A stretch of DNA of 64,000 nt from contig OX597838.1 of assembly GCA_951406725.2 (NCBI GenBank), forward strand, positions 33,356,001 to 33,420,000, in the 5' to 3' direction. The notes beneath the pieces were generated by a model. The model was given only the letters and a program-made list of their open reading frames with translations. It ran no database searches and was not told the origin of the DNA. The stretch is from Octopus vulgaris (Eukaryota). A program made the position numbers and the translations under genes. Positions 4,401-33,101 of the stretch are shown in pieces (position 1 is the stretch's first letter; each line of letters opens with the position of its first letter).

Positions 4401-4524
4401 AACTCTGGTATCTCCTCACCCCGAGCGGATAAATCTTTCGCCTTTTACTAAAGATTTCCGTGGGGAGGAACATTTTAATGAGTCTATAGACTTATTTTTG
4501 AAAGCCTCATCTAACCATGAGGCG
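4401..4524 (+). ncRNA. U5: U5 snRNA gene, class X flank (T10A change in stem Ib)
   Basis: ACTCTGG start; loop 1 GCCTTTTAC closed by AAATCTTT/AAAGATTT; Sm site ATTTTTG; 3' hairpin GCCTCAT/ATGAGGC. Confidence 0.96.
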
Positions 4525-4760
4525 GTAATTAAATCAACATCAGACTAATTAATATTGGGTCCATTGCGACCTCCTAACCGTTTTGCCTCGGGTTCAGTCG
4601 CACAGCGTGTCTTGTCTTCTATTGTAAACTCAATAAGTCTATCAGTGCCTTGGCCGAACTGCTAAGTTACAAAGCTGTATGCGCTTCTCCCTAACCACTA
4701 CTTTACAACCATTGTTGGTTTGTTTACACCCCGTAACTTAGCAGTTCGGCCAAGGCACTG

Positions 4761-5300
4761 ATAGACTTATTTTTGAAAGCCTCATCTAACCATGAGGCGA
4801 TAATTAAATTAACATCAGACTAATTAATATTGGGTTAATTGCGACCGCCTAACCGTTTTGCCTCGGGTTCAGTCGCACAGCTTGTCATTTATTGTACCCC
4901 AGGCTGAACAAAGCTGTATGTCCTTGTCCCTAACCACTACTTTACAACCAATGTTGGTTTGTTTACACCCCGTAACTTAGCAGTTCGGCCAAGGCACTGA
5001 TAGACTTATTTTTGAAAGCCTCATCTAACCATGAGGCGATAATTAAATTAACATCAGACTAATTAATATTGGGTTAATTGCGACCGCCTAACCGTTTTGC
5101 CTCGGGTTCAGTCGCACAGCTTGTCATTTATTGTACCCCAGGCTGAACAAAGCTGTATGTCCTTGTCCCTAACCACTACTTTACAACCAATGTTGGTTTG
5201 TTTACACCCCATAACTTAGCAGTTCGGCCAAGGCACTGATAGACTTATTTTTGAAAGCCTCATCTAACAATGAGGCGATAATTAAATTAATATCAGACTA
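4761..5300 (+). repeat. 239-bp tandem repeat: U5 3' stub (Sm site, hairpin, 3' box) plus degenerate SINE; stubs at 4761, 5000, 5239
   Basis: ATAGACTTATTTTTGAAAGCCTCATCTAAC recurs at a 239-bp period. Confidence 0.93.
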
Positions 5301-5789
5301 ATTAATTTGGATCACGAACCGGGATTCCCAGTCCCACTAACATTGTTATTATATTTCTCACGTAAACGGTATGTTCGTCTATTCGTTGTTATATTCCCCG
5401 TCACAACATTACAGCAATATTATATATTGCTTGCTGGCAAAGTGCTTAGCGGCATTTCGGTTGTCTTCATCTAAAGAAGCCATTTAATTAAACTAAAGTT
5501 AGATTAATCTCTTTGGAAAAGACATAAGCCAGTCGAATTCAGTCAACAATTTTGGGTTTGGCCGAATTAGATCTCATTTAGTGGACCCTATTAAAGTGGG
5601 ATTCGAAATTGTAATTCTGTTCCTGTAAAACTTTTCATTATAGGATATACAGTAAGAGATGATGTATTTATGATATTGATTTCTAATTTTTTGCTAGCAA
5701 TTTAGTGGGAGGAGGTAAGTCGACAATATCGATCCCAGTACTAGTGTCCCCTTCTCTCTAATGCCTTTACGGCAATTTAAAAGAAATAG

Positions 5790-6222
5790 AGAAGCTTGCT
5801 GCCCCAACCACATGGTTTCGGGTTCAGTTCCATTGCGTGACACTTTGAGCAAGTGTCTTTTACTATAGCCTTGGGCCGATTAAAACTTTTTGTGTAGATT
5901 TGGTGGACGGAAACTAAAAGAAGCCCGTTGTGTGTGTGTTCGTGGCTGTCTTTGTCCTCCATCGCAATTTGATAACCGGTGTTGGTGCATTTACGTTCCT
6001 GTAACACTAGCGGTTCAGCAAAAGAGATTGAGCAAGTATCTTCTACTATAGCCCTGGGCCGATTAAAGCTTTTTGTGTAGATTTGGTGGACGGAAACTAA
6101 AAGAAGCCCGTTGTGTGTGTGTTCGTGACTGTCTCTGTCCTCCACCGCAGTTTGATAACCGGTGTTGGTGTATTTACGTTCCTGTAACACTAGCGGTTCA
6201 GCAAAAGAGATTGATAGAATAG
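5790..6222 (+). mobile_element. Family-1 SINE with ~183-bp internal tandem duplication
   Basis: TTGAGCAAGT...CAGCAAAAGAGATTGA block occurs twice (about 5845 and 6028). Confidence 0.8.
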
Positions 6223-6561
6223 GTGCAACGCTTTTATTTAGTGATGAAGGAGTTTTGTGTTTAACAAATAGCAAAGAAAATATCTCCACTGACATCTAAA
6301 CAAAATGACAAAAGGTCAAGGTCGATTGTAAATTTTAGCGACATATATTCATAAATACGATATTATTTAATTAAAAGCTAACTTTACAATTACAATATCT
6401 AGAATAAAACGTTTATTATAATGTACTAAAAGTTTATATATAAAAATATTTTCAACTTATGGAGCAAATAATTAATTAGGTATATTAATTTGTTTTTCCT
6501 AATCAGTGCTTGTGTATTTAGATATTTTGTATAAGATTGAATGTCTAAGTGTGTGTCAGCT

Positions 6562-6685
6562 AACTCTGGTTTCTCCTCACCCCGAGCGGATAAATCTTTC
6601 GCCTTTTACTAAAGATTTCCGTGGGGAGGAACATTTTAATGAGTCTATAGACTTATTTTTGAAAGCCTCATCTAACCATGAGGCG
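6562..6685 (+). ncRNA. U5: U5 snRNA gene, class Y flank
   Basis: Full U5 consensus; conserved upstream TAATCAGTG block and 3' box. Confidence 0.96.
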
Positions 6686-6886: not shown

Positions 6887-6925
6887 ATAAACTTATTTTT
6901 GAAAGTCTCATCTAACCATGAGGCG
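6887..6925 (+). pseudogene. U5 3' stub
   Basis: Only Sm site and 3' hairpin, followed by 3' box. Confidence 0.85.
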
Positions 6926-7230
6926 ATAATTAAATTAATATCAGACTAATAAACAAAATAAATTCGAGGAATGGGCAGTAAATAGTACTGCCCATTTCTC
7001 GAAAAACTGTTGTATATACTGCAACGAACTCGCATTGTGCCTTTCTACAGTCGGGTTTTGTTGTAGCTCGATCGGTGATGCCTGGGCTCAGACTAAATCT
7101 TCCTCTCACGTGTATGGATGACCTTTACTGCTTTGGGTTAAATCAAACCGTAATGTTAGACAATGGATAAATCTTGATTTGTAATTTCTCATATAAAATT
7201 ATACTGAACAGAAATTATATGGTCAGCCAG

Positions 7231-7515: not shown

Positions 7516-7628
7516 AAACTAGCTTCTACTTCCATTGTGTGGGTGATAATTTAGTTTATTGGGGTGAGTGCGTTAAGCGGTGATAAATAAAAATGCGACG
7601 TTAATATCAGTTCGAATCTGCTTAAGTA

Positions 7629-8178
7629 CGAGGGTGAGTCAAAAAGTGATGCCATTTTGTTTAGGACAGGTATAATTACCATCACAGGAACATGTATCAT
7701 ACATCAAAATGAAGCTGGTCCTCTGTGGATAACATCCCTACTTCTCAACATAGTCACCGTTTCTCTCAATAGCAATGTTCCACCTTCGAATGAGAGCATG
7801 TATCCCTGCCCTGTAAAATTCTGTTGATTGTTCTTTGAGCCACTTCTTCACTACAGTTGTCACTTCCTCGTCACTGGACTATCATCTCTTCGGCCCCATG
7901 AAAGAGGGTTTGAGAGGCAAACATTATTCCAGTGACGAGGAAGTGAAAACTGTAGTGAAGAAGTGGCTCAAAGAACAGTCAACAGAATTTTATGGGGGCA
8001 GAGAGATATGCTCTCATTCGAAGGCGGAACATTGCTAATGAGAGAAACAGTGACTATGTTGAGAAGTAGGGATGTGATCCACAGAGGACCAGCTTCATTT
8101 TAATGTATGATACATGTTCCTGTGGTGGTAATTATACCTGTCCTAAACAAATTGGCATTACGTTTTGACTCACCCTCG
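7629..8178. mobile_element. Palindromic mariner-derived MITE (~250-bp inverted arms, TA TSD)
   Basis: TA|CGAGGGTGAGTCAAAA...TTTTGACTCACCCTCG|TA; centre encodes mariner C-terminus DYHLFGPMKEGLRGKHYSSDEEVK. Confidence 0.9.
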
Positions 8179-8310
8179 TATTTACAAGTCAGAACGTACT
8201 AGTGTTAACATTGCATTTTTAATTTATCGATCTCAACCTGATACGAAGTCATAATCACATATACAATACTTGACATTCTCGAACGTGGCTGTGGAGTGAG
8301 AAGCTTGCTT

Positions 8311-8868
8311 CTCCGACGCATGCGTTGGTCAGTGTCTTTTTTTTTTCTTTTGCACTGCTAGGAGTCACAACACCAACGTCGTAGGTCATTTGTTTTTTTG
8401 GAGGGATTCAGTGGGATGTTTGTTGCTCGTGTTTAATTATTTGGTCGAATAAGAAATCTCCACTGAGTCCCGGGCATTTGTCTGCCTGTAGTTGTGTTTA
8501 AAGTCTCACTTACAGGTGAGAAGTGTGTTTTGAGCGCATATCCTTCCTCCTATAATTGTGCTTATTTTTACCAATTTTTGGTGAAATTGTTTTGTGCCCT
8601 GGATTACCGAATTGGTCAGGAGTACCAGGACAGCCAGAAGAACAGTTTGCTGTGTTTTTAAACTGTTTCTTGTCTTCTTCATTCCTTCCTGCATCTTTGT
8701 TTTTTTTGAACTCTGTGAACTTTTGTTTTTCTGTAAAAAAATGGCAAAAATGAACAACACTGCGTTGGAGTGGGAGATTGTCCCACCCAAACAGTGAATG
8801 AAAGACTTTGAAGTGAAGACGGTGGTGTTAAGGACTTACTCAAAGTCACTAGACACCATCGCCCTCTT
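8311..8868 (+). mobile_element. Tx1/L1-like retrotransposon family A: 5' UTR plus ORF1 N-terminus (ATG 8741), 3'-truncated
   Basis: MAKMNNTALEWEIVPPKQ*MKDFEVKTVVLRTYSKSLDTIALF is homologous to the zinc-knuckle ORF1 at 12230; T-rich UTR. Confidence 0.65.
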
Positions 8869-9304
8869 TTTAGACTTCGAGGGACTTTGTTCGATAGCAT
8901 TCCCCACATTTTGGCAGTTCTCCTCACTACGAGACGCTCGAGGTCACCTAGGGATATTTTTCTTCTCAGTATCACCTGTCTCACAGAAATTTGTAACAGC
9001 CCGCAGGATCACTTTCGGAGAAGGTGCCTATCACTTTCCAAAATGCTGTCGGAATTTTCTTTGGGCTGCAACGATGGATCTTTGGCTGGTGAAGTATGCT
9101 TTGACCACGTATGCAATTTCTTTTGGAGTCCACAACATTATGAGGGTCACCATAATCAAATACCTGTACAAAAAATAGTAAAATCTTAGATATGTTGAAC
9201 TCCTGTATATCAGTCATGTAATGAATATATTTCGTTCTCTATGTCATTTTTTCAATCCAAGATACTAACATTTAAAATGTGCCCCGTCATTATGGCCCAT
9301 CCTG
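8867..9304 (-). mobile_element. Tc1/mariner transposon 5' fragment (DUF4817-like HTH)
   Basis: Minus strand reads WTPKEIAYVVKAYFTSQRSIVAAQRKFRQHFGK..PSPKVILRAVTNFCETG; TIR-like end CAGGATGGGCC at 9304. Confidence 0.75.
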
Positions 9305-9360
9305 CATGGCTACAGTCCAATGACTGAAACAAGTAAAACATAAAACGTGACAGATTTGCT

Positions 9361-9486
9361 ATGCCTCTGGTTTCTCCTCACCCCGAGCGGATAAATCTTT
9401 CGCCTTTTACTAAAGATTTCCGTGGGGAGGAACATTTTAATGAGTCTATAGACTTATTTTTGTAAGCCTCATCTAACCTTGAGGCT
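9361..9486 (+). ncRNA. U5: U5 snRNA copy, class Z (ATGCCTCTGG...CCTTGAGGCT), upstream promoter block lost
   Basis: Full U5 body; 5' flank switches to a SINE tail about 20 nt upstream. Confidence 0.88.
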
Positions 9487-9813
9487 GATAATTAAATTAA
9501 CATCAGACTAATTAACTTGGTTTCACAAACTACGGGTCCCTGGGCCCTCCAACACCGTGTTATCTCTAAACTTACTTTTCTGAGTTTCATCTAACTATAA
9601 AGACATTGAGATAACTGCAGGTCTCGTGTGTGTGTTACGTTTATCGCTATAAATTTTTTAACGGTTGTGATTTGGGGAAGATTTGGTTGCTATTTCTAGC
9701 AATTCAGAGACTGTCTAGAGCAGGCATCGGCAACCATTTTCGAGAAACGCTTTGATGCTTACAAAAATGTTTAAAAACGTGGTCCTGTGAGCCGAGAAAT
9801 TTTAGCAGCAGTT

Positions 9814-9850
9814 TCAAGGTCAAGGTCGATTATAAACATCACTGATAGGT
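9814..9850 (+). promoter_or_regulatory. Candidate U5 distal element (TCAAGGTCAAGGTCGATTATAAAC) at about -250
   Basis: Positionally conserved upstream of copies whose flanks have otherwise diverged (3718, 6312, 14557, 30718). Confidence 0.5.
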
Positions 9851-9973
9851 ACAAATATATCCAGTTTTATTTAGTCAAACCTTAATATTTAATGAGTAAC
9901 ACATCGAATAAAATATTTATTATAATCTACTAGTTATTTATATATAAAGATATTTAAAATTTGTTGATCATGA

Positions 9974-10012
9974 AATTAATTACCTATATTGATTTATATC
10001 TTCTAATCAGTG
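9974..10012 (+). promoter_or_regulatory. Candidate U5 proximal sequence element (ATTRATTT...TTCTAATCAGTG, about -90 to -54)
   Basis: Conserved at near-fixed distance in X, Y and Z flanks; PSE position typical of Pol II snRNA genes. Confidence 0.6.
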
Positions 10013-10065
10013 TTTGTTTAGTCAGATATTTTGTATAATATTGAATGTCAAAATGTGTGTCAGTT

Positions 10066-10189
10066 AACTCTGGTTTCTCCTCACCCCGAGCGGATAAATC
10101 TTTCGCCTTTTACTAAAGATTTCCGTGGGGAGGAACATTTTAATGAGTCTATAGACTTATTTTTGAAAGTCTCATCTAACCATGAGGCG
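10066..10189 (+). ncRNA. U5: U5 snRNA gene, class Y (C>T wobble in 3' hairpin)
   Basis: Full U5 consensus with upstream blocks and 3' box. Confidence 0.96.
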
Positions 10190-10213
10190 ATAATTAAATT
10201 AATATCAGACTAA
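10190..10213 (+). terminator. Candidate snRNA 3' box (ATAATTAAATTAAYATCAGAC), after every U5 copy and stub
   Basis: Near-invariant directly downstream while further flanks diverge; AA..A..AGA core resembles the metazoan 3' box. Confidence 0.6.
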
Positions 10214-10894
10214 TAAACAAAATAAATTCGAGGAATGGGCAGTAAATAGTACTGCCCATTTCTCGAAAAACTGTTGTATATACTGCAACGAACTCGCATT
10301 GTGCCTTTCTACAGTCGGGTTTTGTTGTAGCTCGATCGGTTGTGCCTGGGCTCAGACAAAATCTTCCTCTCACGTGTATGGATGACCTTTGCTGCTTTGG
10401 GTTAAATCAAACCGTAATATTAGACAATGGATAAATCTTGATTTGTAATTTCTCATATAAAATTATACTGAACAGAAATTATATGGTCAGCCAAACTAGC
10501 TTCAGTGGAAGCGCAATGGCCCAGTGGTTAGGGCAAGCGGACTCGTGGTTTCGATTCCCAGACTGGGCGTTGTGTGTGTTTATTGAGCGAAAACTCCGTC
10601 AAGGGGTGGTGGCGACCCCTGTTGTACTCTTTCGCCACACCTTTCTCTCACTCTTTCTTCCTGTTTCTTGAGTAACGCTGCGATGGACAGGCGTCCCGTC
10701 CAGTTGGGGGGAACACATACGCCACAGAAACCGGGCCCATGTGCCTGGCTAGGCTTGAAAAGGGCGCATAAATTAAAAAAAAAACTAGCTTCTACTTCCA
10801 TTGTGTGGGTGATAATTTAGTTTATTGGGGTGAGTTCGTTAAGCGGTGATAAATAAAAATGCGACGTTAATATCAGTTCGAATGTGCTTAAGTA

Positions 10895-11420
10895 CGAAGG
10901 TGAGTTAAAAAGCAATACCATTTTCTTTAAGACAGGTATAATTACCATCACAGGAACATTATCATACATCAAAATGAAACCGGTCCTCTGTGGATCACAT
11001 CCCTACTTCTCAACATAGTCACCATTTCTCTCAATAGCAATGTTCCACCTTCGAATGAGAGCATGTATCCCTGTCCTGTAAAATTCTGTTGACTGTTCTT
11101 CTTCACAGTTTTCACATCTTCGTCACAGGACTATCATCTCTTCGGCCCCATGAAAGAGGCAAACATTATTCTAGTGACGAGGAAGTGAAAGCGGTAGTGA
11201 AGAAGTGGCTCAAAGAACAGTCAACAGAATTTTATGGGGGCAGAGATACATGCTCTCATTCGAAGGTGGAACATTGCTATTGAGAGAAATGGTGACTATG
11301 TTGAGAAGTATGGATGTGATCCACAGAGGACCAGCTTCATTTTGATGTATGATACATGTTCCTGTGGTGGTGATTATACCTGTCCTAAACAAAATGGCAT
11401 TACTTTTTGACTCACCCTCG
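10895..11420. mobile_element. Palindromic mariner MITE, copy 2
   Basis: Same TIRs and TA TSD, same site in the unit. Confidence 0.9.
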
Positions 11421-11569
11421 TATTTACAATTCAGAACGTGATTTTAGCATATTCGAACTAGTGTTAACATTGCATTTTTAATTTTTCGATCTCAACCTGA
11501 TACGAAGTCATAATCACATATACAATACTTGACATTCTCGAACGTGGCTGTGGAGTGAGAAGCTTGCTT

Positions 11570-13227
11570 CCGCACATGCGCTGTAAGTCGGTTTCTTCCA
11601 GTTGAACTAGAGTGGACGTAGGCTTGTTAGCTCCGTCCAATTACAAGAAAAAAGAACAAAAACAGAGAAGGTTGTCGAGTCAAGTGATTTTGTTTTATCT
11701 GAGCTGGGTGTAATTTGTTATATTGTAATTTTCTGTTAACAAATTTCGCCCATCGCTGGGACAATTTCGCCTGCTCTCGGCGGCTGCTATTTTTGTATAT
11801 TGTGAATTTTTTGGATTCATTTTTTAAAAAGAAGTGGTGGGGCGTATCCTCGTCCGAATAGAACCTGTTACAGTTGCTGCTGCAGTTACCGTTGGCTGTA
11901 GCCAGTATTGTGTTTGGATTTATTGGATTTATTTTACCAATTACCGAAAAAAAAAAAGATTTATGCCAAGGACCCTATCCACATTAGGCCTGGAGTACCT
12001 GTTGGCCAGAAAATTGGATTTTTGCTGTGTGAATTGTTTTTCTATTTTTCGTCTATCTTTCCTGATTTTTTTCTTTCTTTTTGAACTGTTAATTTATTTT
12101 TTGGACTTACTTTGTTTTATTTTTTTACTGTTTCTATTAACTTTTTATGTACCTTATTTTATTATTTTTTTTTACATCCTCTTTGACCTTTGAACTTTCT
12201 TTAAACTTTTAAGACTTTCTTTTTTGCACATGGCAAAAATAAACGGTGCCGCTGCTTTGGAGTGGGAGGTGGTCCCACCCAAACAGTGGATTAAAGATCT
12301 TGAGAAGAGGACGGTGGTACTACGGACCTATTCTAGGTCGTGTGGTGCCATCGCCCTCTTCGACAAGAGCGTAATAGAGAGAGAGTTGGCAGACTACCTG
12401 CCAACTATAAAATTTATTTCACAAGGGACCAAATTTGCAACGGTGTGGTTGCTGTTTGGTACCCCCGAGGAAGCTGGCAGATTCCCTTGAGGGAAAAGAA
12501 ATTTTGTTCCTCCCCACTTATTGTGGGAGAAATATATGAAGAGCCTGGGTGTGCGGGCTGCCCCCGGGCACGGAGGCGGAATGGATCGAGAGGACCATCC
12601 GGCGAGGCCTGGGGGATAGCGGGCCCAGGCTATTGAGTGTGGGGATTGCTCCCGCGGTCGACTGGGAGGGGTCAAGGGCAACTTTGACCCTGTGGACCCC
12701 GGTGGCCGTGGGAGACATGATGCTTCCGGATTTCCTAAAAATGGCTGGGTACAGGTGCCCGGTGATATTTGAGGGATGCCCCCCCCCCAAGTGTCACCTG
12801 TGCCTGGAGCCTGGCCATATCGAGGGGAACTGTCCAGGGGGCCGTGGTAGGGCCCTAGAGCATGAGAAAGAGAAGGTACCCGCCGCCCCCTCATTGGAGG
12901 GGGAGACGGTGGAAGTGTGGAGGAAGTTGCCTCCACGAAAAGAAAAAGAAAGGTGAGTAACAATGGTTGCTCACCAAAGAATGTTCAGGCGGCGGAGGAG
13001 GGTAGCGACCCCCTGCGTCTGTCGACGCAGCCCCCTGCTCCCGCAGCCTCAAAAAGAAAGCGGAAAAAGAGGAGCAGAGGACGGTCGGCGGATGTTCCTG
13101 GGCCGCCGACGGAGCCGCAGGTGGGATGTGTGCCACCTGCCGATGGGGCTCCGCCAGTGGGAAGTGTGCCACTGATGGAGCAGTGTGAGGTCCCTTCCTT
13201 TGAAGAGGAAGTGTTTGTCCTCCTTTA

Positions 13228-13228
<1 letters not shown>
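11570..13228 (+). mobile_element. Tx1/L1-like retrotransposon family B: 5' UTR plus frameshifted ORF1 (ATG 12230) with CCHC zinc knuckle; no ORF2
   Basis: VIFEGCPPPKCHLCLEPGHIEGNC (CX2CX4HX4C at 12792-12833) followed by a basic/Pro-rich region; GC-rich ORF after a T-rich UTR. Confidence 0.75.
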
Positions 13229-13289
<61 letters not shown>

Positions 13290-13639
13290 ACACACACACA
13301 CACACATGCTTCTTTCAGCATCCATCGACTAAATCCACTCAGAAATCTCTGGACTGTCCGTGGTTACACTTGAAGACACTCGTCAAAGGTGCCATGCCGT
13401 GAATGAAAACCCAAAACTCTATGCTTGCGAGACAAAATTCCTACAACACGGCTGAGCTTGCAGTTTGTCCGAAACTAACAATTTCCCCTCACAGAAGTGT
13501 TGTCAGGAGAAGGATTTCTGAGAGTAATCCGTAATTCTTAAAGGCTGAAAGTTCCCTGTAATATCAAAGATAGCAGATCTTCTCCATGTTGGCAACTGGG
13601 ATACAACAAAATTCTATCAAAGGTACTAAAGATTTCCTT

Positions 13640-14017
13640 ATTTCTTTATTGCCCATAAGGGGCTAAACATAGAGGAGGACAAACAAGGACAGACAAAGGG
13701 ATTAAGTCGATTACATCGACACAGTGCGTAACTGGTACTTAATTTATCGACCCCGAAAGGATGAAAGGCAAAGTCGACCTCGGCGGAATTTGAACTCAGA
13801 ACGTAGCGACAGACGAAATACGGCTACGCATTTCGCCCGGCGTGCTAACGTTTCTGCCAGCTCGCCGCCGTATTAATAACTGGTACTTATTTAATCGACC
13901 CCGAAAGGATGAAAGGCAAAGTCGACCTCGGCGGAATTTGAACTCAGAACGTAACGGCAGACGAAATACTGCTAAGCATTTCGCCCGGCGTGCTAACGAT
14001 TCTGCCAGCTTGCCGCC
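13640..14017 (-). mobile_element. Dimeric family-2 SINE inserted at the U5 pseudogene 5' junction
   Basis: Two tandem heads; flanked by a ~21-bp duplication AAAGRTACTAAAGATTTCCTT. Confidence 0.85.
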
Positions 14018-14028
14018 TTAACTAAAGA

Positions 14029-14107
14029 TACTAAAGATTTCCTTGGGGAGGAACATTTTTAATGAGTCTATAGACTTATTTTTGTAAGCCCCTTCTAACT
14101 TGAGGCT
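14029..14107 (+). pseudogene. 5'-truncated U5 pseudogene (starts inside loop 1), Z-type 3' end
   Basis: TACTAAAGATTTCCTTGGGGAGGAAC...TTTTTGTAAGCCCCTTCTAACTTGAGGCT; hairpin disrupted. Confidence 0.88.
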
Positions 14108-14808
14108 GATAATTAAATTAACATCGGATTTTCGAAGACCTACAGGTGTCGTTAGCTGTTCCTCATCTTTTCAACTTGAAAGTAGTGATGGTTACTGTAA
14201 CTTTCACACCCGAGATTAGACAAATTTCGAAGGAGGTCGTGCTTATATCTATTCTATCTCCACTCCCAGCCATGACCTCTAGGTGATTGGATTATTTTAC
14301 GATGGAAGCCCGATTTGAACTCGTAACACTGTGTTTACAAATTGTCTTTCTTCAAATTTGTGGAATCATATTATTTGGTGAGTCTATACTCCCCTTTTTA
14401 AAAATGTTTGATTGTGATTTGAGAAAGATTTGGTTCCTATTTCTAGCAATTGAGCGACGGCCTAGAGCAGGCATCCGCAACTCTTTTCGAGGAAACGCAT
14501 TAATGTTTGCAAAAAAAAAGTGGTCCTATGAGCCGAGAAATTTTAGCAGCAGTTTCAAGGTGAAGGTCGATTATAAACGTCACTGATAGGTATAAATATA
14601 TCCAGTGTTATTTAATTAAAATCTAAATAATTGATTGATTATAATACATGAAAGAAAATGTTTATTATAATTCTACTAATTATTTATATATAACATATTC
14701 AAAATTTTCTTATCATAGAATTAATTATCTACATTAATTTACATTTTCTAATCAGTGTTTGTTTATTTAGATATTTTGCATAATAACAGGCGTGAAAGGT
14801 ATGCCGTT

Positions 14809-14932
14809 AACTCTGGTTTCTCCTCACCCCGAGCGGATAAATCTTTCGCCTTTTACTAAAGATTTCCGTGGGGAGGAACATTTTAATGAGTCTATAGACT
14901 TATTTTTGAAAGCCTCATCTAACCATGAGGCG
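14809..14932 (+). ncRNA. U5: U5 snRNA gene, class X
   Basis: Full U5 consensus with upstream blocks and 3' box. Confidence 0.96.
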
Positions 14933-15133
14933 ATAATTAAATTAACATCAGACTAATTAATATTGAGTCAATTGTGACCTCTTAACCATTTTACCTCGGG
15001 TTCAGTCCCACAACGTGTCTTCTATTGTGACTTCAGGCTGAACAAAGCTGTATGTGCTTGTCCCTAACCACTACTTTACAACAAATGTTGATTTGTTTAC
15101 ACCCCGTAACTTAGCAGTTCGGCCAAGGCACTG

Positions 15134-15172
15134 ATAGATTTATTTTTGAAAGCCTCATCTAACCATGAGGCG
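15134..15172 (+). pseudogene. U5 3' stub
   Basis: Only Sm site, hairpin and 3' box. Confidence 0.85.
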
Positions 15173-15381
15173 GTAATTAAATTAACATCAGACTAATAAA
15201 CAAAATAGACTCGAGGAATGGGCAGTAAATAGTACTTCCCATTTCTCGAAAAACTTGTATATACTGCAACCAACTCGCATTGAGCCTTCCTACAGTCGGG
15301 TTTTGTTGTAGCTCGATCGGTGGTGCCTGGGCTCAGACTAAAACTTTCTCTCACGTGTATGGATGACTTTTACTGTAAGTA

Positions 15382-15918
15382 CGAGGGTGAGTCAAAAAGT
15401 AATGCTCTATTGTTTAGGACAGGTATAATTACCAACACAGGAACATGTATAATACATCAAAATGAAGCCGGTCCTCTGTGGATCACATCCCTACTTCTCA
15501 ACATAGTCACCGTTTCTCTCAATAGCAATGTCCCACCTTCGAATGAGAGCATGTATTCCTACCCCGTAAAATTCCGTTGACTGTTCTTTGAGCCACTTTT
15601 TCACTTCCTCTTCACTGGACTATCGTCTCTTCGGCCCCATGAAAGAGGGTTTGAGAGGCAAACATTATTCTAGCGACGAGGAAGTGAAAGCGGTAGTGAA
15701 GAGGTGGCTCAAAGAACAGTCAACAGAATTTTATGGGGCAGGGATACATGCTCTCATTCGAAGGTGGAACATTGCTATTGAGAGAAACAGTGACTATGTT
15801 GAGTAGTAGGGATGTGATCCACAGAGGACCGGCTTCATTTTGATGTATGATACACATTCCTGTGTTGGTGATTATACCAGTCCTAAACAAACTGGCATTA
15901 CTTTTTGACTCACCCTCG
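15382..15918. mobile_element. Palindromic mariner MITE, copy 3
   Basis: TIRs and TA TSD; ORF 15588-15806 matches the mariner C-terminus. Confidence 0.9.
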
Positions 15919-16067
15919 TATTTACAAGTCAGAACGTGCTTTTAGCATATTCGAACTAGTGTTAACATTGCATTTTTAATTTATCGATCTCAACCTGATA
16001 CGAAGTCATAATCACATATACAATACTTGACATTCTCGGACGTGGCTGTGGAGTGAGAAGCTTGCTT

Positions 16068-16624
16068 CTCCGCGCATGCGTTGGTCAGTGTCTTTTTTTT
16101 TTTCTTTTGCACTGCTAGGAGTCACAACACCAACGTCGTAGGTCATTTGTTTTTTTGGAGGGATTCAGTGGGATGTTTGTTGCTCGTGTTTAATTATTTG
16201 GTCGAATAAGAAATCTCCACTGAGTCCCGGGCATTTGTCTGCCTGTAGTTGTGTTTAAAGTCTCACTTACAGGTGAGAAGTGTGTTTTGAGCGCATATCC
16301 TTCCTCCTATAATTGTGCTTATTTTTACCAATTTTTGGTGAAATTGTTTTGTGCCCTGGATTACCGAATTGGTCAGGGGTACCAGGACAGCCAGAAGAAT
16401 AGTTTGCTGTGTTTTTAAACTGTTTCTTGTCTTCTTCATTCCTTCCTGCATCTTTGTTTTTTTGAACTCTGTGAACTTTTGTTTTTCTGTAAAAAAATGG
16501 CAAAAATGAACAACACTGCGTTGGAGTGGGAGATTGTCCCACCCAAACAGTGGATGAAAGACTTTGAAGTGAAGACGGTGGTGTTAAGGACTTACTCAAA
16601 GTAACTAGACACCATCGCCCTCTT
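16068..16624 (+). mobile_element. Tx1/L1-like family A 5' fragment, copy 2 (ATG 16497)
   Basis: Near-identical to 8311-8868. Confidence 0.65.
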
Positions 16625-17060
16625 TTTAGACTTCGAGGGACTTTGTTCGATAGCATTCCCCACATTTTGGCAGTTCTCCTCACTACGAGACGCTCGAGGT
16701 CACCTAGGGATATTTTTCTTCTCAGTATCACCTGTCACACAGAAATTTGTAACAGCCCGCAGGATCACTTTCGGAGAAGGTGCCTATCACTTTCCAAAAT
16801 GCTGTCGGAATTTTCTTTGGGCTGCAACGATGGATCTTTGGCTGGTGAAGTATGCTTTGACCACGTATGCAATTTCTTTTGGAGTCCACAACATTATGAG
16901 GGTCACCATAATCAAATACCTGTACAAAAAATAGTAAAATCTTAGATATGTTGAACTCCTGTATATCAGTCATGTAATGAATATATTTCGTTCTCTATGT
17001 CATTTTTTCAATCCAAGATACTAACATTTAAAATGTGCCCCGTCATTATGGCCCATCCTG
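16623..17060 (-). mobile_element. Tc1/mariner 5' fragment, copy 2
   Basis: Near-identical to 8867-9304. Confidence 0.75.
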
Positions 17061-17116
17061 CATGGCTACAGTCCAATGACTGAAACAAGTAAAACATAAA
17101 ACGTGACAGATTTGCT

Positions 17117-17242
17117 ATGCCTCTGGTTTCTCCTCACCCCGAGCGGATAAATCTTTCGCCTTTTACTAAAGATTTCCGTTGGGAGGAACATTTTAATGAG
17201 TCTATAGACTTATTTTTGTAAGCCTCATCTAACCTTGAGGCT
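17117..17242 (+). ncRNA. U5: U5 snRNA copy, class Z, promoterless, G>T breaks a stem Ib pair
   Basis: Full body; CCGTTGGGAGG variant. Confidence 0.85.
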
Positions 17243-17821
17243 GATAATTAAATTAACATCAGACTAATTAACTTGGTTTCACAAACTACGGGTCCCTGGG
17301 CCCTCCAACACCGTGTTATCTCTAAACTTACTTTTCTGAGTTTCATCTAACTATAAAGACATTGAGATAACTGCAGGTCTCGTGTGTGTGTTACGTTTAT
17401 CGCTATAAATTTTTTAACGGTTGTGATTTGGGGAAGATTTCGTTGCTATTTCTAGCAATTCAGAGACTGTCTAGAGCAGGCATCGGCAACCATTTTCGAG
17501 AAACGCTTTGATGCTTACAAAAATGTTTAAAAACGTGGTCTTGTGAGCCGAGAAATTTTAGCAGCAGTTTCAAGGTCAAGGTCGATTATAAACATCACTG
17601 ATAGGTACAAATATATCCAGTTTTATTTAGTCAAACCTTAATATTTAATGAGTAACACATCGAATAAAATATTTATTATAATCTACTAGTTATTTATATA
17701 TAAAGATATTTAAAATTTGTTGATCATGAAATTAATTACCTATATTGATTTATATCTTCTAATCAGTGTTTGTTTAGTCAGATATTTTGTATAATATTGA
17801 ATGTCAAAATGTGTGTCAGTT

Positions 17822-19173: not shown

Positions 19174-19322
19174 TATTTACAATTCAGAACGTGATTTTAG
19201 CATATTCGAACTAGTGTTAACATTGCATTTTTAATTTTTCGATCTCAACCTGATACGAAGTCATAATCACATATACAATACTTGACATTCTCGAACGTGG
19301 CTGTGGAGTGAGAAGCTTGCTT

Positions 19323-20984
19323 TCCGCACATGCGCTGTAAGTCGGTTTCTTCCAGTTGAACTAGAGTGGACGTAGGCTTGTTAGCTCCGTCCAATTACAA
19401 GAAAAAAAGAACAAAAACAGAGAAGGTTGTCGAGTCAAGTGATTTTGTTTTATCTGAGCTGGGTGTAATTTGTTATATTGTAATTTTCTGTTAACAAATT
19501 TCGCCCATCGCTGGGACAATTTCGCCTGCTCTCGGCGACTGCTATTTTTATATATTGTGAATTTTTTGGATTCATTTTTTAAAAAGAAGTGGTGGGGCGT
19601 ATCCTCGCCCGAATAGAACCTGTTACAGTTGCTGTTGCAGTTACCGTTGGCTGTAGCCAGTATTGTGTTTGGATTTATTGGATTTATTTTACCAATTACC
19701 GAAAAAAAAAAAGATTTATGCCAAGGACCCTATCCACATTAGGCCTGGAGTACCTGTTGGCCAGAAAATTGGATTTTTGCTGTGTGAATTGTTTTTCTAT
19801 TTTTCGTCTATCTTTCCTGATTTTTTTCTTTCTTTTTGAACTGTTAATTTATTTTTTGGACTTACTTTGTTTTATTTTTTTACTGTTTCTATTAACTTTT
19901 TATGTACCTTATTTTATTATTTTTTTTTTTTACATCCTCTTTGACCTTTGAACTTTCTTTAAACTTTTAAGACTTTCTTTTTTGCACATGGCAAAAATAA
20001 ACGGTGCCGCTGCTTTGGAGTGGGAGGTGGTCCCACCCAAACAGTGGATTAAAGATCTTGAGAAGAGGACGGTGGTACTACGGACCTATTCTAGGTCGTG
20101 TGGTGCCATCGCCCTCTTCGACAAGAGCGTAATAGAGAGAGAGTTGGCAGACTACCTGCCAACTATAAAATTTATTTCACAAGGGACCAAATTTGCAACG
20201 GTGTGGTTGCTGTTTGGTACCCCCGAGAAGCTGGCAGATTCCCTTGAGGGAAAAGAAATTTTGTTCCTCCCCACTTATTGTGGGAGAAAGATATGAAGAG
20301 CCTGGGTGTGCGGGCTGCCCCCGGGCACGGAGGCGGAATGGATCGAGAGGACCATCCGGCGAGGCCTGGGGGATAGCGGGCCCAGGCTATTGAGTGTGGG
20401 GATTGCTCCCGCGGTCGACTGGGAGGGGTCAAGGGCAACTTTGACCCTGTGGACCCCGGTGGCCGTGGGAGACATGATGTTTCCGGATTTCCTAAAAATG
20501 GCTGGGTACAGGTGCCCGGTGATATTTGAGGGATGCCCCCCCCCCAAGTGTCACCTGTGCCTGGAGCCTGGCCATATCGAGGGGAACTGTCCAGGGGGCC
20601 GTGGTAGGGCCCTAGAGCATGAGAAAGAGAAGGTACCCGCCGCCCCCTCATTGGAGGGGGAGACGGTGGAAGTGTGGAGGAAGTTGCCTCCACGAAAAGA
20701 AAAAGAAAGGTGAGTAACAATGGTTGCTCACCAAAGAATGTTCAGGCGGCGGAGGAGGGTAGCGACCCCCTGCGTCTGTCGACGCAGCCCCCTGCTCCCG
20801 CAGCCTCAAAAAGAAAGCGGAAAAAGAGGAGCAGAGGACGGTCGGCGGATGTTCCTGGGTCGCCGACGGAACCGCAGGTGGGATGTGTGCCACCTGTGGA
20901 TGGGGCTCCGCCAGTGGGAAGTGTGCCACTGACGGAGCAGTGTGAGGGCCCTTCCTGTGAAGAGGAGGTGTTTGTCCTCCTTTA

Positions 20985-20986
<2 letters not shown>
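19323..20986 (+). mobile_element. Tx1/L1-like family B 5' UTR plus ORF1, copy 2 (ATG 19988)
   Basis: Near-identical to 11570-13228; same CCHC knuckle. Confidence 0.75.
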
Positions 20987-21055
<69 letters not shown>

Positions 21056-21386
21056 CTTCTTTCAGCATCCATCGACTAAATCCACTCAGAAATCTCTGGA
21101 CTGTCCGTGGTTACACTTGAAGACACTCGTCGAAGGTGCCATGCCGTGAATGAAAACCCAAAACTCTATGCTTGCGAGACAAAATTCCTACAACACGGCT
21201 GAGCTTGCAGTTTGTCCGAAACTAACAATTTCCCCTCACAGAAGTGTTGTCAGGAGAAGGATTTCTGAGAGTAATCCGTAATTCTTAAAGGCTGAAAGTT
21301 CCCTGTAATATCAAAGATAGCAGATCTTCTCCATGTTGGCAACTGGGATACAACAAAATTCTATCAAAGGTACTAAAGATTTCCTT

Positions 21387-21765
21387 ATTTCTTTATTGCC
21401 CATAAGGGGCTAAACATAGAGGAGGACAAACAAGGACAGACAAAGGGATTAAGTCGATTACATCGACCACAGTGCGTAACTGGTACTTAATTTATCGACC
21501 CCGAAAGGATGAAAGGCAACGTCGACCTCGGCGGAATTTGAACTCAGAACGTAACGGCAGACGAAATACTGCTAAGCATTTCGCCCGGCGTGCTAACGAT
21601 TCTGCCAGCTCGCCGCCGTATTAATAACTGGTACTTATTTAATCGACCCCGAAAGGATGAAAGGCAAAGTCGACCTCGGCGGAATTTGAACTCAGAACGT
21701 AACGGCAGACGAAATACTGCTAAGCATTTCACCCGGCGTGCTAACGATTCTGCCAGCTTGCCGCC
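21387..21765 (-). mobile_element. Dimeric family-2 SINE, copy 2
   Basis: As 13640-14017. Confidence 0.85.
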
Positions 21766-21776
21766 TTAACTAAAGA

Positions 21777-21855
21777 TACTAAAGATTTCCTTGGGGAGGA
21801 ACATTTTTAATGAGTCTATAGACTTATTTTTGTAAGCCCCTTCTAACTTGAGGCT
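21777..21855 (+). pseudogene. 5'-truncated U5 pseudogene, copy 2
   Basis: As 14029. Confidence 0.88.
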
Positions 21856-22567
21856 GATAATTAAATTAACATCGGATTTTCGAAGACCTACAGTTGTCGT
21901 TAGCTGTTCCTCATCTTTTCAACTTGAAAGTAGTGATGGTTACTGTAACTTTCACACCCGAGATTAGACAAATTTCGGAGGAGGTCGTGCTTATATCTAT
22001 TCTATCTCCACTCCCAGCCATGACCTCTAGGTGATTGGATTATTTTACGATGGAAGCCCGATTTGAACTCGTAACACTGTGTTTACAAATTGTCTTTCTT
22101 CAAATTTGTGGAATCATATTATTTGGTGAGTCTATACTCCCCTTTTTAAAAATGTTTGATTGTGATTTGAGAAAGATTTGGTTCCTATTTCTAGCAATTG
22201 AGCGACGGCCTAGAGCAGGCATCCGCAACTCTTTTCGAGGAAACGCATTGATGTTTGCAAAAAAAAAAAAAAAAAAAATGGTCCTGTGAGCCGAGAAATT
22301 TTAGCAGCAGTTTCAAGGTGAAGGTCGATTATAAACGTCACTGATAGGTATAAATATATCCAGTTTTATTTAATTAAAATCTAATTAATTGATTGATTAT
22401 AATACATGGAAGAAAATATTTATTATAATTCTACTAATTATTTATATATAACATATTCAAAATTTTCTTATCATAGAATTAATTATCTACATTAATTTAC
22501 ATTTTCTAATCAGTGTTTGTTTATTTAGATATTTTGTATAATAACAGGCGTGACAGGTATGCCAGTT

Positions 22568-22691
22568 AACTCTGGTTTCTCCTCACTCCGAGCGGATAAA
22601 TCTTTCGCCTTTTACTAAAGATTTCCGTGGGGAGGAACATTTTAATGAGTCTATAGACTTATTTTTGAAAGCCTCATCTAACCATGAGGCG
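22568..22691 (+). ncRNA. U5: U5 snRNA gene, class X (C>T in internal loop 2)
   Basis: Full consensus, CACTCCGAG variant. Confidence 0.95.
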
Positions 22692-23389
22692 ATAATTAAA
22701 TTAATATCAGACTAATAAACAAAATAAATTCGAGGAATGGGCAGTAAATAGTACTACCCATTTCTCGAAAAACTTGTATATACTGCAACGAACTCGGACT
22801 GTGCCTTTCTACAGTCGAGTTTTGTTGTAGCTCGATCGGTTGTGCCTGGGCTCAGACTAAATCTTCCTCTCACGTGTATGGATGACCTTTGCTGCTTTGG
22901 GTTAAATCAAACCGTAATATTAGACAATGGATAAATCTTGATTTGTAATTTCTCATATAAAATTATACTGAACAGAAATTATATGGTCAGCCAAACTAGC
23001 TTCAGTGGAGGCACAAGGGCAAGCGGACTCGCGGTTTCGATTCCCAGACTGGGCGCTGTGTGTGTTTATTGAGCGAAAACACCTAAAGCTCCGGCAAGGA
23101 GTGGTGGCGACCCCTGCTGTACTCTTTCGCCCCAACTTTTTCTGACTCTCTCTTCCTGTTTCTTGAGTAACGCTGCGATGGACAGGTGTCCCGTCCAGTT
23201 AAGGGGGAACACATACGCCACAGAAACCGGGCCCATGAGCCTGGCTAGGCTTGAAAAGGGCGCATAAATAAATAAAAACCTAGCTTCTACTTCCATTGTG
23301 TGGGTGATAATTTAGCTTATTGGGGTGAGTGCGTTAAGCGGTGATAAATAAAAATGCGACGTTAATATCAGTTCGAATCTGCTTAAGTA

Positions 23390-24025: not shown

Positions 24026-24104
24026 TACTAAAGATTCCCTTGGGGAGGAACATTTTTAATGAGTCTATAGACTTATTTTTGTAAGCCCCTTCTAACTTGA
24101 GGCT
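24026..24104 (+). pseudogene. 5'-truncated U5 pseudogene, copy 3
   Basis: As 14029. Confidence 0.88.
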
Positions 24105-24806
24105 GATAATTAAATTAACATCGGATTTTCGAAAACCTACAGGTGTCGTTAGCTGTTCCTCATCTTTTCAACTTGAAAGTAGTGATGGTTACTGTAACTT
24201 TCACACCCGAGATTAGACAAATTTCGAAGGAGGTCGTGCTTATATCTATTCTATCTCCACTCCCAGCCATGACCTCTAGGTGATTGGATTATTTTACGAT
24301 GGAAGCCCGATTTGAACTCGTAACACTGTGTTTACAAATTGTCTTTCTTCAAATTTGTGGAATCATATTATTTGGTGAGTCTATACTCCCCTTTTTAAAA
24401 ATGTTTGATTGTGATTTGAGAAAGATTTGGTTCCTATTTCTAGCAATTGAGCGACGGCCTAGAGCAGGCATCCACAACTCTTTTCGAGGAAACGCATTGA
24501 TGTTTGCAAAAAAAAAATGGTCCTTTGAGCCGAGAAATTTTAGCAGCAGTTTCAAGGTGAAGGTCGATTATAAACGTCACTGATAGGTATAAATATATCC
24601 AGTTTTATTTAATTAAAATCTAATTAATTGATTGATTATAATACATGGAAGAAAATATTTATTATAATTCTACTAATTATTTATATATAACATATTCAAA
24701 ATTTTCTTATCATAGAATTAATTATCTACATTAATTTACATTTTCTAATCAGTGTTTGTTTATTTAGATATTTTGTATAATAAAAGGCGTGACAGGTGTG
24801 CCAGTT

Positions 24807-24930
24807 AACTCTGGTTTCTCCTCACCCCGAGCGGATAAATCTTTCGCCTTTTACTAAAGATTTCCGTGGGGAGGAACATTTTAATGAGTCTATAGACTTA
24901 TTTTTGAAAGCCTCATCTAACCATGAGGCG
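24807..24930 (+). ncRNA. U5: U5 snRNA gene, class X
   Basis: Full consensus with upstream blocks. Confidence 0.96.
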
Positions 24931-26172: not shown

Positions 26173-26298
26173 ATGCCTCTGGTTTCTCCTCACCCCCAGC
26201 GGATAAATCTTTCGCCTTTTACTAAAGATTTCCGTGGGGAGGAACATTTTAATGAGTCTATAGACTTATTTTTGCAAGCCTCATCTAACCTTGAGGCT
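26173..26298 (+). ncRNA. U5: U5 snRNA copy, class Z, promoter block lost beyond about -32
   Basis: Full body; CACCCCCAGC and TTTTTGCAAG variants. Confidence 0.85.
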
Positions 26299-26866
26299 GA
26301 TAATTAAATTAACATCAGACTAATTAACTTGGTTTCACAAACTACAGGTCCCTGGGCCCTCGAACGTTGTCTATAAACTTATTTTTCTAAGTTTCATCTA
26401 ACCATAAAGACATTAAGATAGCAGGTCGTGTGTGTGTTACGTTTATCGCTATAAATTTTTTAACGGTTGTGATTTGGGGAAGATTTGGTTGCTATTTCAA
26501 GCAATTCAGTGACTGTCTAGAGCAGGCATCGGCAACCATTTTCGAGAAACGATTTGATGCTTACAAACATTTTTTTAAACGTGGTCCTGTGAGCCGAGAA
26601 ATTTTAGCAGCCGTTTCAAGGTCAAGGTCGATTATAAACATCACTGATAGGTACAAATATATCCAGTTTTATTTAGTCAAACCTTAATATTTAATTATTA
26701 ACACATCGACTAAAATATTTATTATAATCTACTAGTTATTTATATATAAAGATATTTAAAATTTGTTGATCATGAAATTAATTACCTATATTGATTTATA
26801 TCTTCTAATCAGTGTTTGTTTAGTCAGATATTTTGTATAATCTTGAATGTCAATTGTGAGTCTGTT

Positions 26867-26990
26867 AACTCTGGTTTCTCCTCACCCCGAGCGGATAAAT
26901 CTTTCGCCTTTTACTAAAGATTTCCGTGGGGAGGAACATTTTAATGAGTCTATAGACTTATTTTTGAAAGCCTCATCTAACAATGAGGCG
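26867..26990 (+). ncRNA. U5: U5 snRNA gene, class Y
   Basis: Full consensus with upstream blocks. Confidence 0.96.
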
Positions 26991-27191: not shown

Positions 27192-27229
27192 ATAGACTTA
27201 TTTTTGAAGCCTCATCTAACCATGAGGCG
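27192..27229 (+). pseudogene. U5 3' stub
   Basis: Only Sm site, hairpin and 3' box. Confidence 0.85.
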
Positions 27230-27345
27230 ATAATTAAATTAACATCAGACTAATAAACTCGAGGAATGGGCAGTAAATAGTACTGTCCATTTCTCGAAAA
27301 ATTGTTGTATATACTGCAACGAACTCGCATTGTGCCTTTCTACAG

Positions 27346-30603: not shown

Positions 30604-30955
30604 TTGTACTGGCATCAAGTCGTATAAGGTGTAATAATGACACCAAACCAAATAGTGATACTTTGAAATTATTTAATACGTATGTCTTCCCAAATCACAA
30701 AATTGAATAAACCCATTCAAGGCGAGCGTCAATTATGAACGTCACCCATCGCTATTAAGAAATCTATTTAATGAAACAGAAATTTCTAAAAATTATAGTA
30801 AGTGCAACTTATTTGGAAAACTATATTTAGTATTATAACCGCAAGCGTTTATAGTCTATTAATCACAAAATTAATTAGGTATATTAATTTACTCAGCATA
30901 ATCAGTATGTGTTTATTTAGATATTTTATATAATAACAGACGTGACAGATTTGCT

Positions 30956-31081
30956 ATGCCTCTGGTTTCTCCTCATCCCGAGCGGATAAATCTTTCGCCT
31001 TTTACTAAAGATTTCCGTGGGGAGGAACATTTTAATGAGTCTATAGACTTATTTTTGAAAGCCTCATCTAACCTTGAGGCT
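30956..31081 (+). ncRNA. U5: U5 snRNA gene, class Z with intact upstream blocks
   Basis: Full body; ATTAATTT..TAATCAGT block upstream; C>T makes a U-G wobble. Confidence 0.93.
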
Positions 31082-31207
31082 GATAATTAAATTAACATCA
31101 GACTAATTAACTTGGTTTCACAAAATACGGGTCCCTGGGCCCTCCAACATTGTGTTGTCTATAAACTTATTTTTCTAAGTTTCATCTAACCATAAAGACA
31201 TTAAGAT

Positions 31208-32524
31208 GTCACAATTCGAATTTATTCCTAACTCCAGCTGTTGTCATCAACTCATCGAGTTTCTTGAGGACGTTACCCAAATCACTGATCGCGGATCCTG
31301 GGTGGATGTTGTTTACCTGGACTTTGCTAAGGCTTTTTACTCTGTGCCACACAAAAGACTTATGGTGAAGCTTTCTGCGTTGGGTGTAAGAGACGAACTC
31401 TATAACTGGTTAAAGTCCTTTATTTTCAGCCGAAAAGAGGTTGTCACAGTTCTAGGACAGCACTCTTCGCCCTATGGGATGACATCTGGTGTACCACAGG
31501 GATCTGTTCTTGGCCCCCTTTTATTTGTTGCATATGTTAATGACATAGATGCCAACTTAAAGAATGCCACAGTGCTGAAATATGCACCTCGAAATAAAGA
31601 GGTCAAATCCTACACACTATAGATCTCTATTGCAAGCAGACCTGGACACAATGCAGCAGTGGATCATGGACTGGCAACTCAAGCTGGTTGTGGACAAATG
31701 TACCACCATGCATTTTGGGAGGAGAAACCCAGCGTCCACCTACTCCCTCCACAACACTAGTCTCAAAAAGTCTTCATGTGAACGTGACCTGGGTGTTATT
31801 GTCGACAGTGATTTGCGTTGGACAAAACACATCGCTAAAATTGTCAAGAAGGCTGAGGGTGTCTTGGCATCACTCACCAAATCCTTTGTAAGCCGCTCTC
31901 CGGCTATCTATCTGCGGCTTTATATAGGTATGGTAAGACCTCACCTGGAATTTGCATCACCGGTCTGGAACCCCTATCTTGCCCAGGACATCAATCGTCT
32001 GGAAGCTGTTCAGCGACGTGCAACCAAAAGAATACCCTCCATCAGTAATCTGCCATATCCTGAACGCTTTACTTCCCTGGGCATGGACACATTGAAACTC
32101 CGACGTCTGGCAGCTGACTTGGCAGACACCCATAAAATTATCAACCATCGCACAAACAATAACTCTGAGCACCTTTTCAAACTCCACCCGTCTAACACCC
32201 GTGGACATATTTACAAAGTCAGAAAACAGCACAGCTCCCATGACTTTAGGAAACATTTTTTCACGCTGAGAGTTGCTGAAGCATGGAACAAACTGCCGGC
32301 ATCGGTTGTTAGTTATCGGAGCACTGCATCCTTCAAAACTTCCATGCTTCCTGAGATTCGCCAACACTACACTTGATTTTCTCCCCTCCATACACATATA
32401 AGCATGTATCTGACTCATACATTGTTCGCTTTCCAGACATTTCTACATTACTGCATGTACTTTATTTGCACTTTCTGACAAGTTGTGGTGCACCTGAGCA
32501 CTGTATACAATAATTTCATTATAT
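31208..32524 (+). mobile_element. 5'-truncated CR1-group LINE (RT domain to 3' UTR) inserted in the U5 spacer
   Basis: VDVVYLDFAKAF, GVPQGSVLGPLLF, RPHLEFASPVWNP; the empty site is TTAAGAT^AGCAGG at ~26420. Confidence 0.92.
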
Positions 32525-32977
32525 AACAGCAGGTCATGTGTATGTGTTACGTTTATCGCTATAAGTTTTTTAACGGTTGTGATTTGGGGAAGATTTGGTT
32601 GCTATTTCTAGCAATTTAGTGACTATCTAGAGCAGGCATCCGCAACCATTTTCGAGAAACGCCTTGATGCTTACAAACATTTTTAAAAACGTGGTCCTGT
32701 GAGCCGAGAAATTTTAGCAGCCGTTTCAAGGTGAAGGTCGATTATAAACATCACTGATAGGTACAAATATATCCAGTTTTATTTAGTCAAACCTTAATAT
32801 TTAATTATTAACACATCGAATAAAATATTTATTATAATCTACTAGTTATTTATATATAAAGATATTTAAAATTTGTCGATCATGAAATTAATTACCTATA
32901 TTGATTTATATCTTCTAATCAGTGTTTGTTTAGTCAGATATTTTGTATAATATTGAATGTCAAAATGTAGGTCAGTT

Positions 32978-33101
32978 AACTCTGGTTTCTCCTCACCCCG
33001 AGCGGATAAATCTTTCGCCTTTTACTAAAGATTTCCGTGGGGAGGAACATTTTAATGAGTCTATAGACTTATTTTTGAAAGCCTCATCTAACCATGAGGC
33101 G
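32978..33101 (+). ncRNA. U5: U5 snRNA gene, class Y (last in the array)
   Basis: Full consensus with upstream blocks. Confidence 0.96.

Follow-up and report, generated by a model that had tools for sequence, protein, structure and literature searches.

The subject of this analysis is a cluster of U5 small nuclear RNA (snRNA) genes in Octopus vulgaris, contained in 64,000 nucleotides of contig OX597838.1 (assembly GCA_951406725.2, positions 33,356,001 to 33,420,000, forward strand). This whole stretch is referred to as the window, and all positions are counted from its first letter. Judged from its sequence, the locus is an irregular cluster of about ten probably working U5 genes, accompanied by promoter-less and truncated copies and probably built from a two-gene unit.

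U5 gene bodies, promoters and flanks

A cmscan search of the whole window at the Rfam gathering thresholds returned 13 full-model matches to RF00020 (U5), all on the + strand between 4400 and 33101. Each of the 13 covers model positions 1-117 and scores 84-92 bits (E 8e-15 to 6e-13), against a gathering score of 40 for this family. The original prediction had proposed this check, and its 13 full-length bodies on one strand were all recovered, each within one base of the start it gave. The remaining 31 kb of the window held no U5 match at the gathering threshold. Nor was a second Rfam family found at that threshold in the 64 kb, with U1, U2, U4, U6 and 5S all lacking a match, and no tRNA genes were found in the window. 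In the list below, V to Z denote upstream lineages and PSE-like refers to a conserved block resembling the proximal sequence element (PSE), both described further on; SINE and MITE stand for short interspersed element and miniature inverted-repeat transposable element.

4400..4524, + strand: U5 gene, lineage V; 87.7 bits, one change at a stem-I position; PSE-like block from 4340
6561..6685, + strand: U5 gene, lineage W (diverged; Y-like near its start only); PSE-like block present
9362..9486, + strand: Z-type U5 body without PSE-like block; matches the intact Z upstream region for 17 bp, then a SINE-like end
10065..10189, + strand: U5 gene, lineage Y; PSE-like block present
14808..14932, + strand: U5 gene, lineage X; PSE-like block present
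17118..17242, + strand: Z-type U5 body without PSE-like block, duplicate of 9362; lowest Rfam score (84 bits), an extra stem-I change, 17 bp of upstream match
17821..17945, + strand: U5 gene, lineage Y; PSE-like block present
22567..22691, + strand: U5 gene, lineage X; PSE-like block present
24806..24930, + strand: U5 gene, lineage X; PSE-like block present
26174..26298, + strand: Z-type U5 body, PSE-like block cut away; 30 bp match to the intact Z upstream region, then the flank of a MITE copy
26866..26990, + strand: U5 gene, lineage Y; PSE-like block present
30957..31081, + strand: sole Z-type U5 gene with PSE-like block (30899); Rfam match and upstream block
32977..33101, + strand: U5 gene, lineage Y; PSE-like block present; 3' flank is the one behind the 5239 fragment

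The 13 bodies are 94-100% identical to one another. The loop 1 columns and the Sm-site U-run do not vary among the 13, in agreement with the original prediction, the position directly 3' of the Sm-site G being variable in three of the four Z copies. A 7-bp 3' hairpin folded in all eight 3' parts tested, and the other five bodies share those sequences. The copies have in common with the U5 family (RF00020) the full covariance-model score, an invariant loop 1 on a long 5' stem (read from the model structure line printed for the top three matches), a single-stranded Sm site followed by the 3' hairpin, and blocks at the PSE and 3'-box positions. From its sequence the RNA is ordinary U5, and nothing in it sets these copies apart. 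Bodies 6561, 14808, 24806 and 32977 are 100% identical over 125 nt though they come from four upstream contexts, their regions from -160 to -71 being 70-96% identical (70-80% between lineages). Across nt 75-150, which take in the linker, the hairpin loop and 25 bp past the gene, lineages V, W, X and Y differ at only 0-4 of 76 positions.

The three flank classes recognized in the original prediction stand for the nearest 20-70 bp, whereas further upstream, at -160 to -71, pairwise identities separate five lineages. X proper (14808, 22567, 24806) and Y proper (10065, 17821, 26866, 32977) are each 96-100% identical within the group and 76-82% identical to each other. Gene 4400 (lineage V) is 72-75% identical to X and to Y alike and X-like within -70 to -1 only, gene 6561 (lineage W) is 70-77% identical in these comparisons (74-77% to Y), and 30957 (Z) is 57-63% identical to X, Y, 4400 and 6561. 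A tree of the upstream regions supported the Y group (91/95), left X unresolved and placed 6561 and 30957 on long branches; the lineage calls rest on the pairwise identities in preference to this tree.

With one representative per lineage, 28 of 37 columns are invariant at -61 to -25 compared with 47 of 133 elsewhere (Fisher p 2.4e-5, a value to be read in the knowledge that the interval was picked after the alignment had been seen). A second, weaker block lies at -100 to -81 (12 of 20 columns invariant). The pattern derived from the stronger block matches ten times in the 64 kb, each time 58-61 bp 5' of a U5 body. As the pattern was built from the block, these ten matches hold by construction, and the informative part is its absence at 9362, 17118 and 26174, three of the four Z copies. 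In animal snRNA promoters the PSE is centred 50-55 bp upstream (PMC1761439; this and the other PMC sources are cited from excerpts). Because its position fits, the block at -61 to -25 is likely the PSE of a Pol II snRNA promoter, a call made from conservation and position. The likely number of working genes is then ten, not 13; the description of all copies as full-length is right for the RNA body, not for the gene at the three positions lacking the block.

4340..4375, + strand: PSE-like block, recognized by conservation and position; putative function assigned from position
6500, 10004, 14749, 17760, 22507, 24746, 26806, 30899, 32916, + strand: starts of the further PSE-like blocks, same pattern
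4525..4549, + strand: 3'-box-like block (example), 84-100% identical among the 13, behind all 13 genes and the fragments; putative function

The 3'-box-like block measures 21-25 bp and follows all 13 genes, where exchange could keep it as well as function. It also follows six U5 3'-end fragments (nt 87-125, X/Y-type), which the original inventory did not list.

4761..5310, + strand: three tandem U5 3'-end fragments (nt 87-125 plus 3' block; starts 4761, 5000, 5239) in a 239-bp repeat
6887..6952, + strand: U5 3'-end fragment plus 3' block; diagnostic base common to genes 10065 and 17821
15134..15199, + strand: U5 3'-end fragment plus 3' block, found by BLAST of one body against the window
27192..27257, + strand: U5 3'-end fragment plus 3' block, found in the same BLAST

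These fragments belong to a cassette of about 240-330 bp, flanked by direct repeats of the U5 3' end and 3' block, which is present behind four genes (three times behind gene 4400) and absent behind the others. Upstream and downstream flanks are also combined in different ways. The X upstream region occurs with two downstream flanks (14808 versus 22567 and 24806) and the Y upstream region with three (26866; 10065 and 17821; 32977). A 3'-hairpin base whose only other occurrence is in the 6887 fragment is present in genes 10065 and 17821, and both genes are also followed by the flank of that fragment. Flank shuffling of this kind suggests crossing-over inside the gene body or close to it.

Two further observations concern these flanks. 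One flank closes both ends of the cluster, as 5311-5467, behind the leftmost gene group, and 33135-33290, behind the rightmost gene, are 95% identical. Within the first cassette behind 4400, a perfect 39-nt inverted repeat (4632-4670 and 4733-4771) spans the point where the SINE-like spacer meets the U5 3' fragment, and looks like a local template-switch inversion.

Z-type copies and the pair unit

The Z-type bodies differ from the others by fixed bases at either end, and their 3' hairpin is an alternative 7-bp form that pairs completely. Because the alternative hairpin pairs fully and Z holds its own bases at both ends, the sequence suggests that Z was formerly a working variant. In addition to the four complete Z bodies, three pseudogenes are truncated at the 5' end.

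14029..14106, + strand: 5'-truncated Z-type pseudogene (nt 47-124), joined to a SINE-like repeat end; weakened 3' hairpin
21777..21854, + strand: 5'-truncated Z-type pseudogene (nt 47-124), found by BLAST with one U5 body
24026..24103, + strand: 5'-truncated Z-type pseudogene (nt 47-124), found by BLAST with one U5 body

All three are 90-91% identical to the query body, with a Z-type 3' end and a weakened hairpin. BLAST of one body against the window also found four degenerate 3' U5 pieces behind Z copies, two at E 2.7e-7 and two at E 0.25, likewise missing from the original inventory, which was correct in its 13 bodies.

The copies had been described as paired, a pseudogene preceding X by about 780 bp and Z preceding Y by about 700 bp. 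The former spacing is borne out (779, 790 and 780 bp), and the latter applies to three of the four pairs (703, 703 and 692 bp). In the fourth pair the distance is 2020 bp, the spacer being split by a 1.3-kb piece of a long interspersed element (LINE). Over about 220 bp the pseudogene-X and Z-Y spacers are 85-87% identical. Since the pseudogenes have Z-type 3' ends and the spacers are alike, pseudogene-X pairs were counted with the Z-Y pairs, and the cluster then consists of seven pairs of a Z-type and an X/Y-type copy plus two single genes at its left end. Neighbour spacings range from 692 to 4746 bp, and the tandem array of the original prediction is not a regular one.

Losses fall on the Z partners. 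Six of the seven lack the promoter block or the 5' half, via three separate breakpoints, whereas all nine other genes are spared (p 0.0009 when copies are counted, although the copies are not independent of one another). That Z stands first in the unit, at its upstream edge, is enough to explain these losses.

Duplication, spacers and neighbouring sequence

Part of the cluster is present twice in a 7.75-kb tandem duplication.

7623..14960, + strand: first copy of the duplication, comprising MITE, spacer A, Z, Y, MITE, spacer B, SINE pair, pseudogene and X
15376..22719, + strand: second copy; 55 mismatches in 6588 bp (0.83%) past the first MITE

The mismatches are spread evenly along the duplicate. 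The duplication supplies three full U5 copies and one pseudogene, and ten bodies remain without the second copy. A third, partial copy of the pseudogene-X block lies at 23984-24958 and is about 98% identical. When 24400-33400 was compared with public sequencing runs, 20 of the 24 listed matches shared part of it; they come from nine studies and four organisms, the best shares being 0.45-0.55 of its sampled words, and no RNA run was among the matches listed. Because about 37% of 24400-33400 is transposon-derived, these shares were not used as evidence on junctions, copy number, relatives or expression.

The spacers are pieced together from modules that recur in the cluster and from transposon fragments.

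7623..8184, strand not applicable: palindromic MITE-like element, arms 93% complementary; copies at 10889, 15376, 18645, 23384 and 25514
31208..32522, + strand: LINE reverse-transcriptase fragment in the Z-Y spacer (RVT_1, E 1.2e-17); the spacer resumes at 32523

A peptide remnant suggests a putative mariner origin for the MITE-like element; the remnant had no Pfam match and no PDB match. The protein-coding content of the spacers is limited to reverse-transcriptase remnants, four of seven tested frames having a Pfam match, two of them inside the cluster. A GC-rich broken frame with a CCHC-like motif occurs at 12230-13220 and 19988-20977, with a diverged relative in spacer A. It resembles a LINE ORF1, and the ORF1-like frame at 12540 had no Pfam match.

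Several other elements lie in or near the cluster. A dispersed repeat at 3807-4265 (86% identical to 53506-53941) breaks the 4400 upstream region at about -135, and beyond it 3708-3790 again resembles the Z-Y spacer. Just 5' of the intact Z gene, 29647-30575 is bounded by terminal inverted repeats of 160-180 bp (96%) and is probably a non-autonomous DNA transposon. On the - strand at 40456-40980, a 175-aa frame with C2H2-type zinc-finger matches is probably the C-terminal end of LINE ORF2. Microsatellites are many in the window, and those at 558-1883 (331 units), 3039-3600 (140) and 39322-40027 (177) are very long tetranucleotide repeats.

Origin and meaning of the cluster

Published work already describes U5 genes in multiple copies and in tandem linkage, in fish, Arabidopsis and fly. 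Tandem U2-U5 units are described as common in fishes (PMC3464664, PMC10532334), and molluscs, fish and coral show linkage of U5 to 5S and to further snRNA genes (PMC8167085). In Arabidopsis, the 14 copies of U5 include one tandem duplication (PMC545797). Drosophila has seven U5 genes, and for most snRNAs of vertebrates the near-identical copies number in the dozens (PMC4291461); human snRNA genes occur in tandem arrays or as single genes (PMC8457000). Given the fish, plant, fly and vertebrate cases, the original prediction overstated how unusual U5 clustering is. Like the snRNA gene units of fish and other animals, the octopus locus repeats U5 at one place, with a coding part that varies little and spacers that vary more (PMC3464664, PMC10532334, PMC8167085), and in the excerpts on those units the PSE and 3' box were likewise found by flank alignment. 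Unlike the fish units, it contains U5 alone, the sole family at the gathering threshold in the window, in place of a linked U1/U2/U5/5S unit, and its spacers are irregular mosaics with transposon pieces. Its copy number is similar to those of Drosophila (seven) and Arabidopsis (14), where variants also differ mainly at the 3' end (PMC4291461, PMC545797); according to the excerpts, those copies lie mostly over several loci, whereas here 13 lie within 29 kb. Among the matches listed from the open-licence literature there was no U5-only cluster in a cephalopod or other mollusc, though supplements of genome papers may list one, and the excerpts of PMC2770079 and PMC13652810 contain nothing on U5 clusters.

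The octopus cluster, with its spacings of 692-4746 bp, five upstream lineages, internal pseudogenes and flanks 57-82% identical between lineages, has neither a constant unit length nor homogenized spacers. Primate RNU2 is said to be a tandem array of regular repeats of one unit, and Xenopus U5 genes reportedly lie in tandem repeats, a finding attributed to Kazmaier (1987). These regular arrays contrast with the cluster here, and resemble it in that a single snRNA gene is repeated in head-to-tail orientation and its coding sequence is homogeneous. Conserved coding parts, divergent spacers and pseudogenes among likely working copies are the marks of birth-and-death evolution within a genome. This part of the original prediction, with its near-identical bodies, fits what was found: identical bodies come from four lineages, with truncated and promoter-less copies among them.

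The 13 one-strand U5 bodies, ten with a likely promoter, probably grew by unequal crossing-over from a two-gene Z plus X/Y unit. The starting unit would have been a Z-type gene followed 0.7-0.8 kb downstream by an X/Y-type gene, later multiplied by unequal crossing-over. The gene body and 3' block, being the longest homology common to all units, would be where crossovers tend to occur, keeping bodies near-identical while flanks diverged, with purifying selection adding to the effect. On three separate occasions, rearrangements ending at transposon edges may have cut the promoter or the 5' half off Z, so that six Z copies would be dead and one intact. Ordinary U5 snRNA of two slightly different sequences would reach the spliceosome from the ten genes that bear the likely promoter. 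A retroposed origin was rejected, as ten copies retain conserved blocks on both sides, every copy has the same orientation and no A-tail was seen in the inspected flanks.

Several points weigh against this account of growth by exchange at the gene. The promoter and 3' box are called by conservation and position within the cluster's own genes. Z keeps its own bases at both body ends, and exchange has hence not been uniform. The loss bias against Z, counted by independent lineages, is three of four versus none of four (p 0.14), which is not significant. Purifying selection by itself could hold the bodies constant, and in a pure birth-and-death process it would do so on independent duplicates with no exchange. 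In favour of that process, U5 is strongly constrained, the Z 3' hairpins differ in sequence and still pair fully, and the pseudogenes drop to 90-91% identity after truncation. However, the U5 paralogues of fly and mouse are variable at their 3' ends (PMC4291461), whereas nt 75-150 of V, W, X and Y are nearly invariant here; exchange at the gene is required to explain the mixed flank combinations and the allele shared with a fragment, and 4400 is X-like in its nearest 70 bp only. Selection alone is quite improbable on this evidence, and the sequence suggests unequal crossing-over and conversion, both centred on the gene body and acting together with purifying selection.

Three of the 13 copies and one pseudogene rest on the 7.75-kb duplication, and its mismatch of 0.83% fits the allelic range. 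Heterozygosity is about 0.95-1.10% in several octopods and 0.08% in one (PMC9795677, in excerpt). The two copies could accordingly be haplotypes assembled end to end, in which case the true count would be ten bodies, eight of them with the upstream block. The even spread of the mismatches and the start of the duplicate inside a repeated MITE agree with this. A real unequal crossover between homologues would give equal divergence, however, and the two copies end in unlike downstream flanks. The window contains no N and hence no scaffold gap at the junction, and the partial third pseudogene-X copy indicates that young duplications do happen at the locus; these two facts favour a real duplication, and an assembly error is unlikely. 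It is very doubtful, too, that Z represents a separate, independently expressed U5 isoform, of which selection holds one working copy as X/Y copies multiply. Its fixed differences and alternative hairpin, its excess of losses on the copy-based count and the developmental U5 isoform switching known in fly and mouse (PMC4291461) speak for such an isoform. Against it, the losses reduce to three independent events, breakpoints would clip Z first as the upstream member of the unit, and X/Y-type 3' ends are likewise found as headless fragments. Equally doubtful is a history of two old U5 isoforms under opposite dosage pressure, with X/Y carried to nine promoter-bearing copies and Z, amplified alongside it, silenced three times, leaving one separately regulated gene at 30957.

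For annotation, Rfam counts here overstate the likely working U5 genes, with 13 matches and ten promoter blocks. A new mechanism would come into view only if the Z isoform turned out to be under regulation of its own; if the two-isoform dosage history were true, the locus would serve as a natural experiment on whether splicing in a mollusc-like animal depends on the dosage of U5 variants. The interval from -61 to -25 provides a candidate snRNA promoter consensus for Octopus vulgaris that, if confirmed on U1, U2 and U4 genes, could be used in annotation and in expression tools. The cluster is also a well-resolved case of turnover in an snRNA family, in which 29 kb of sequence record how pairs were duplicated, flanks shuffled and promoters lost.

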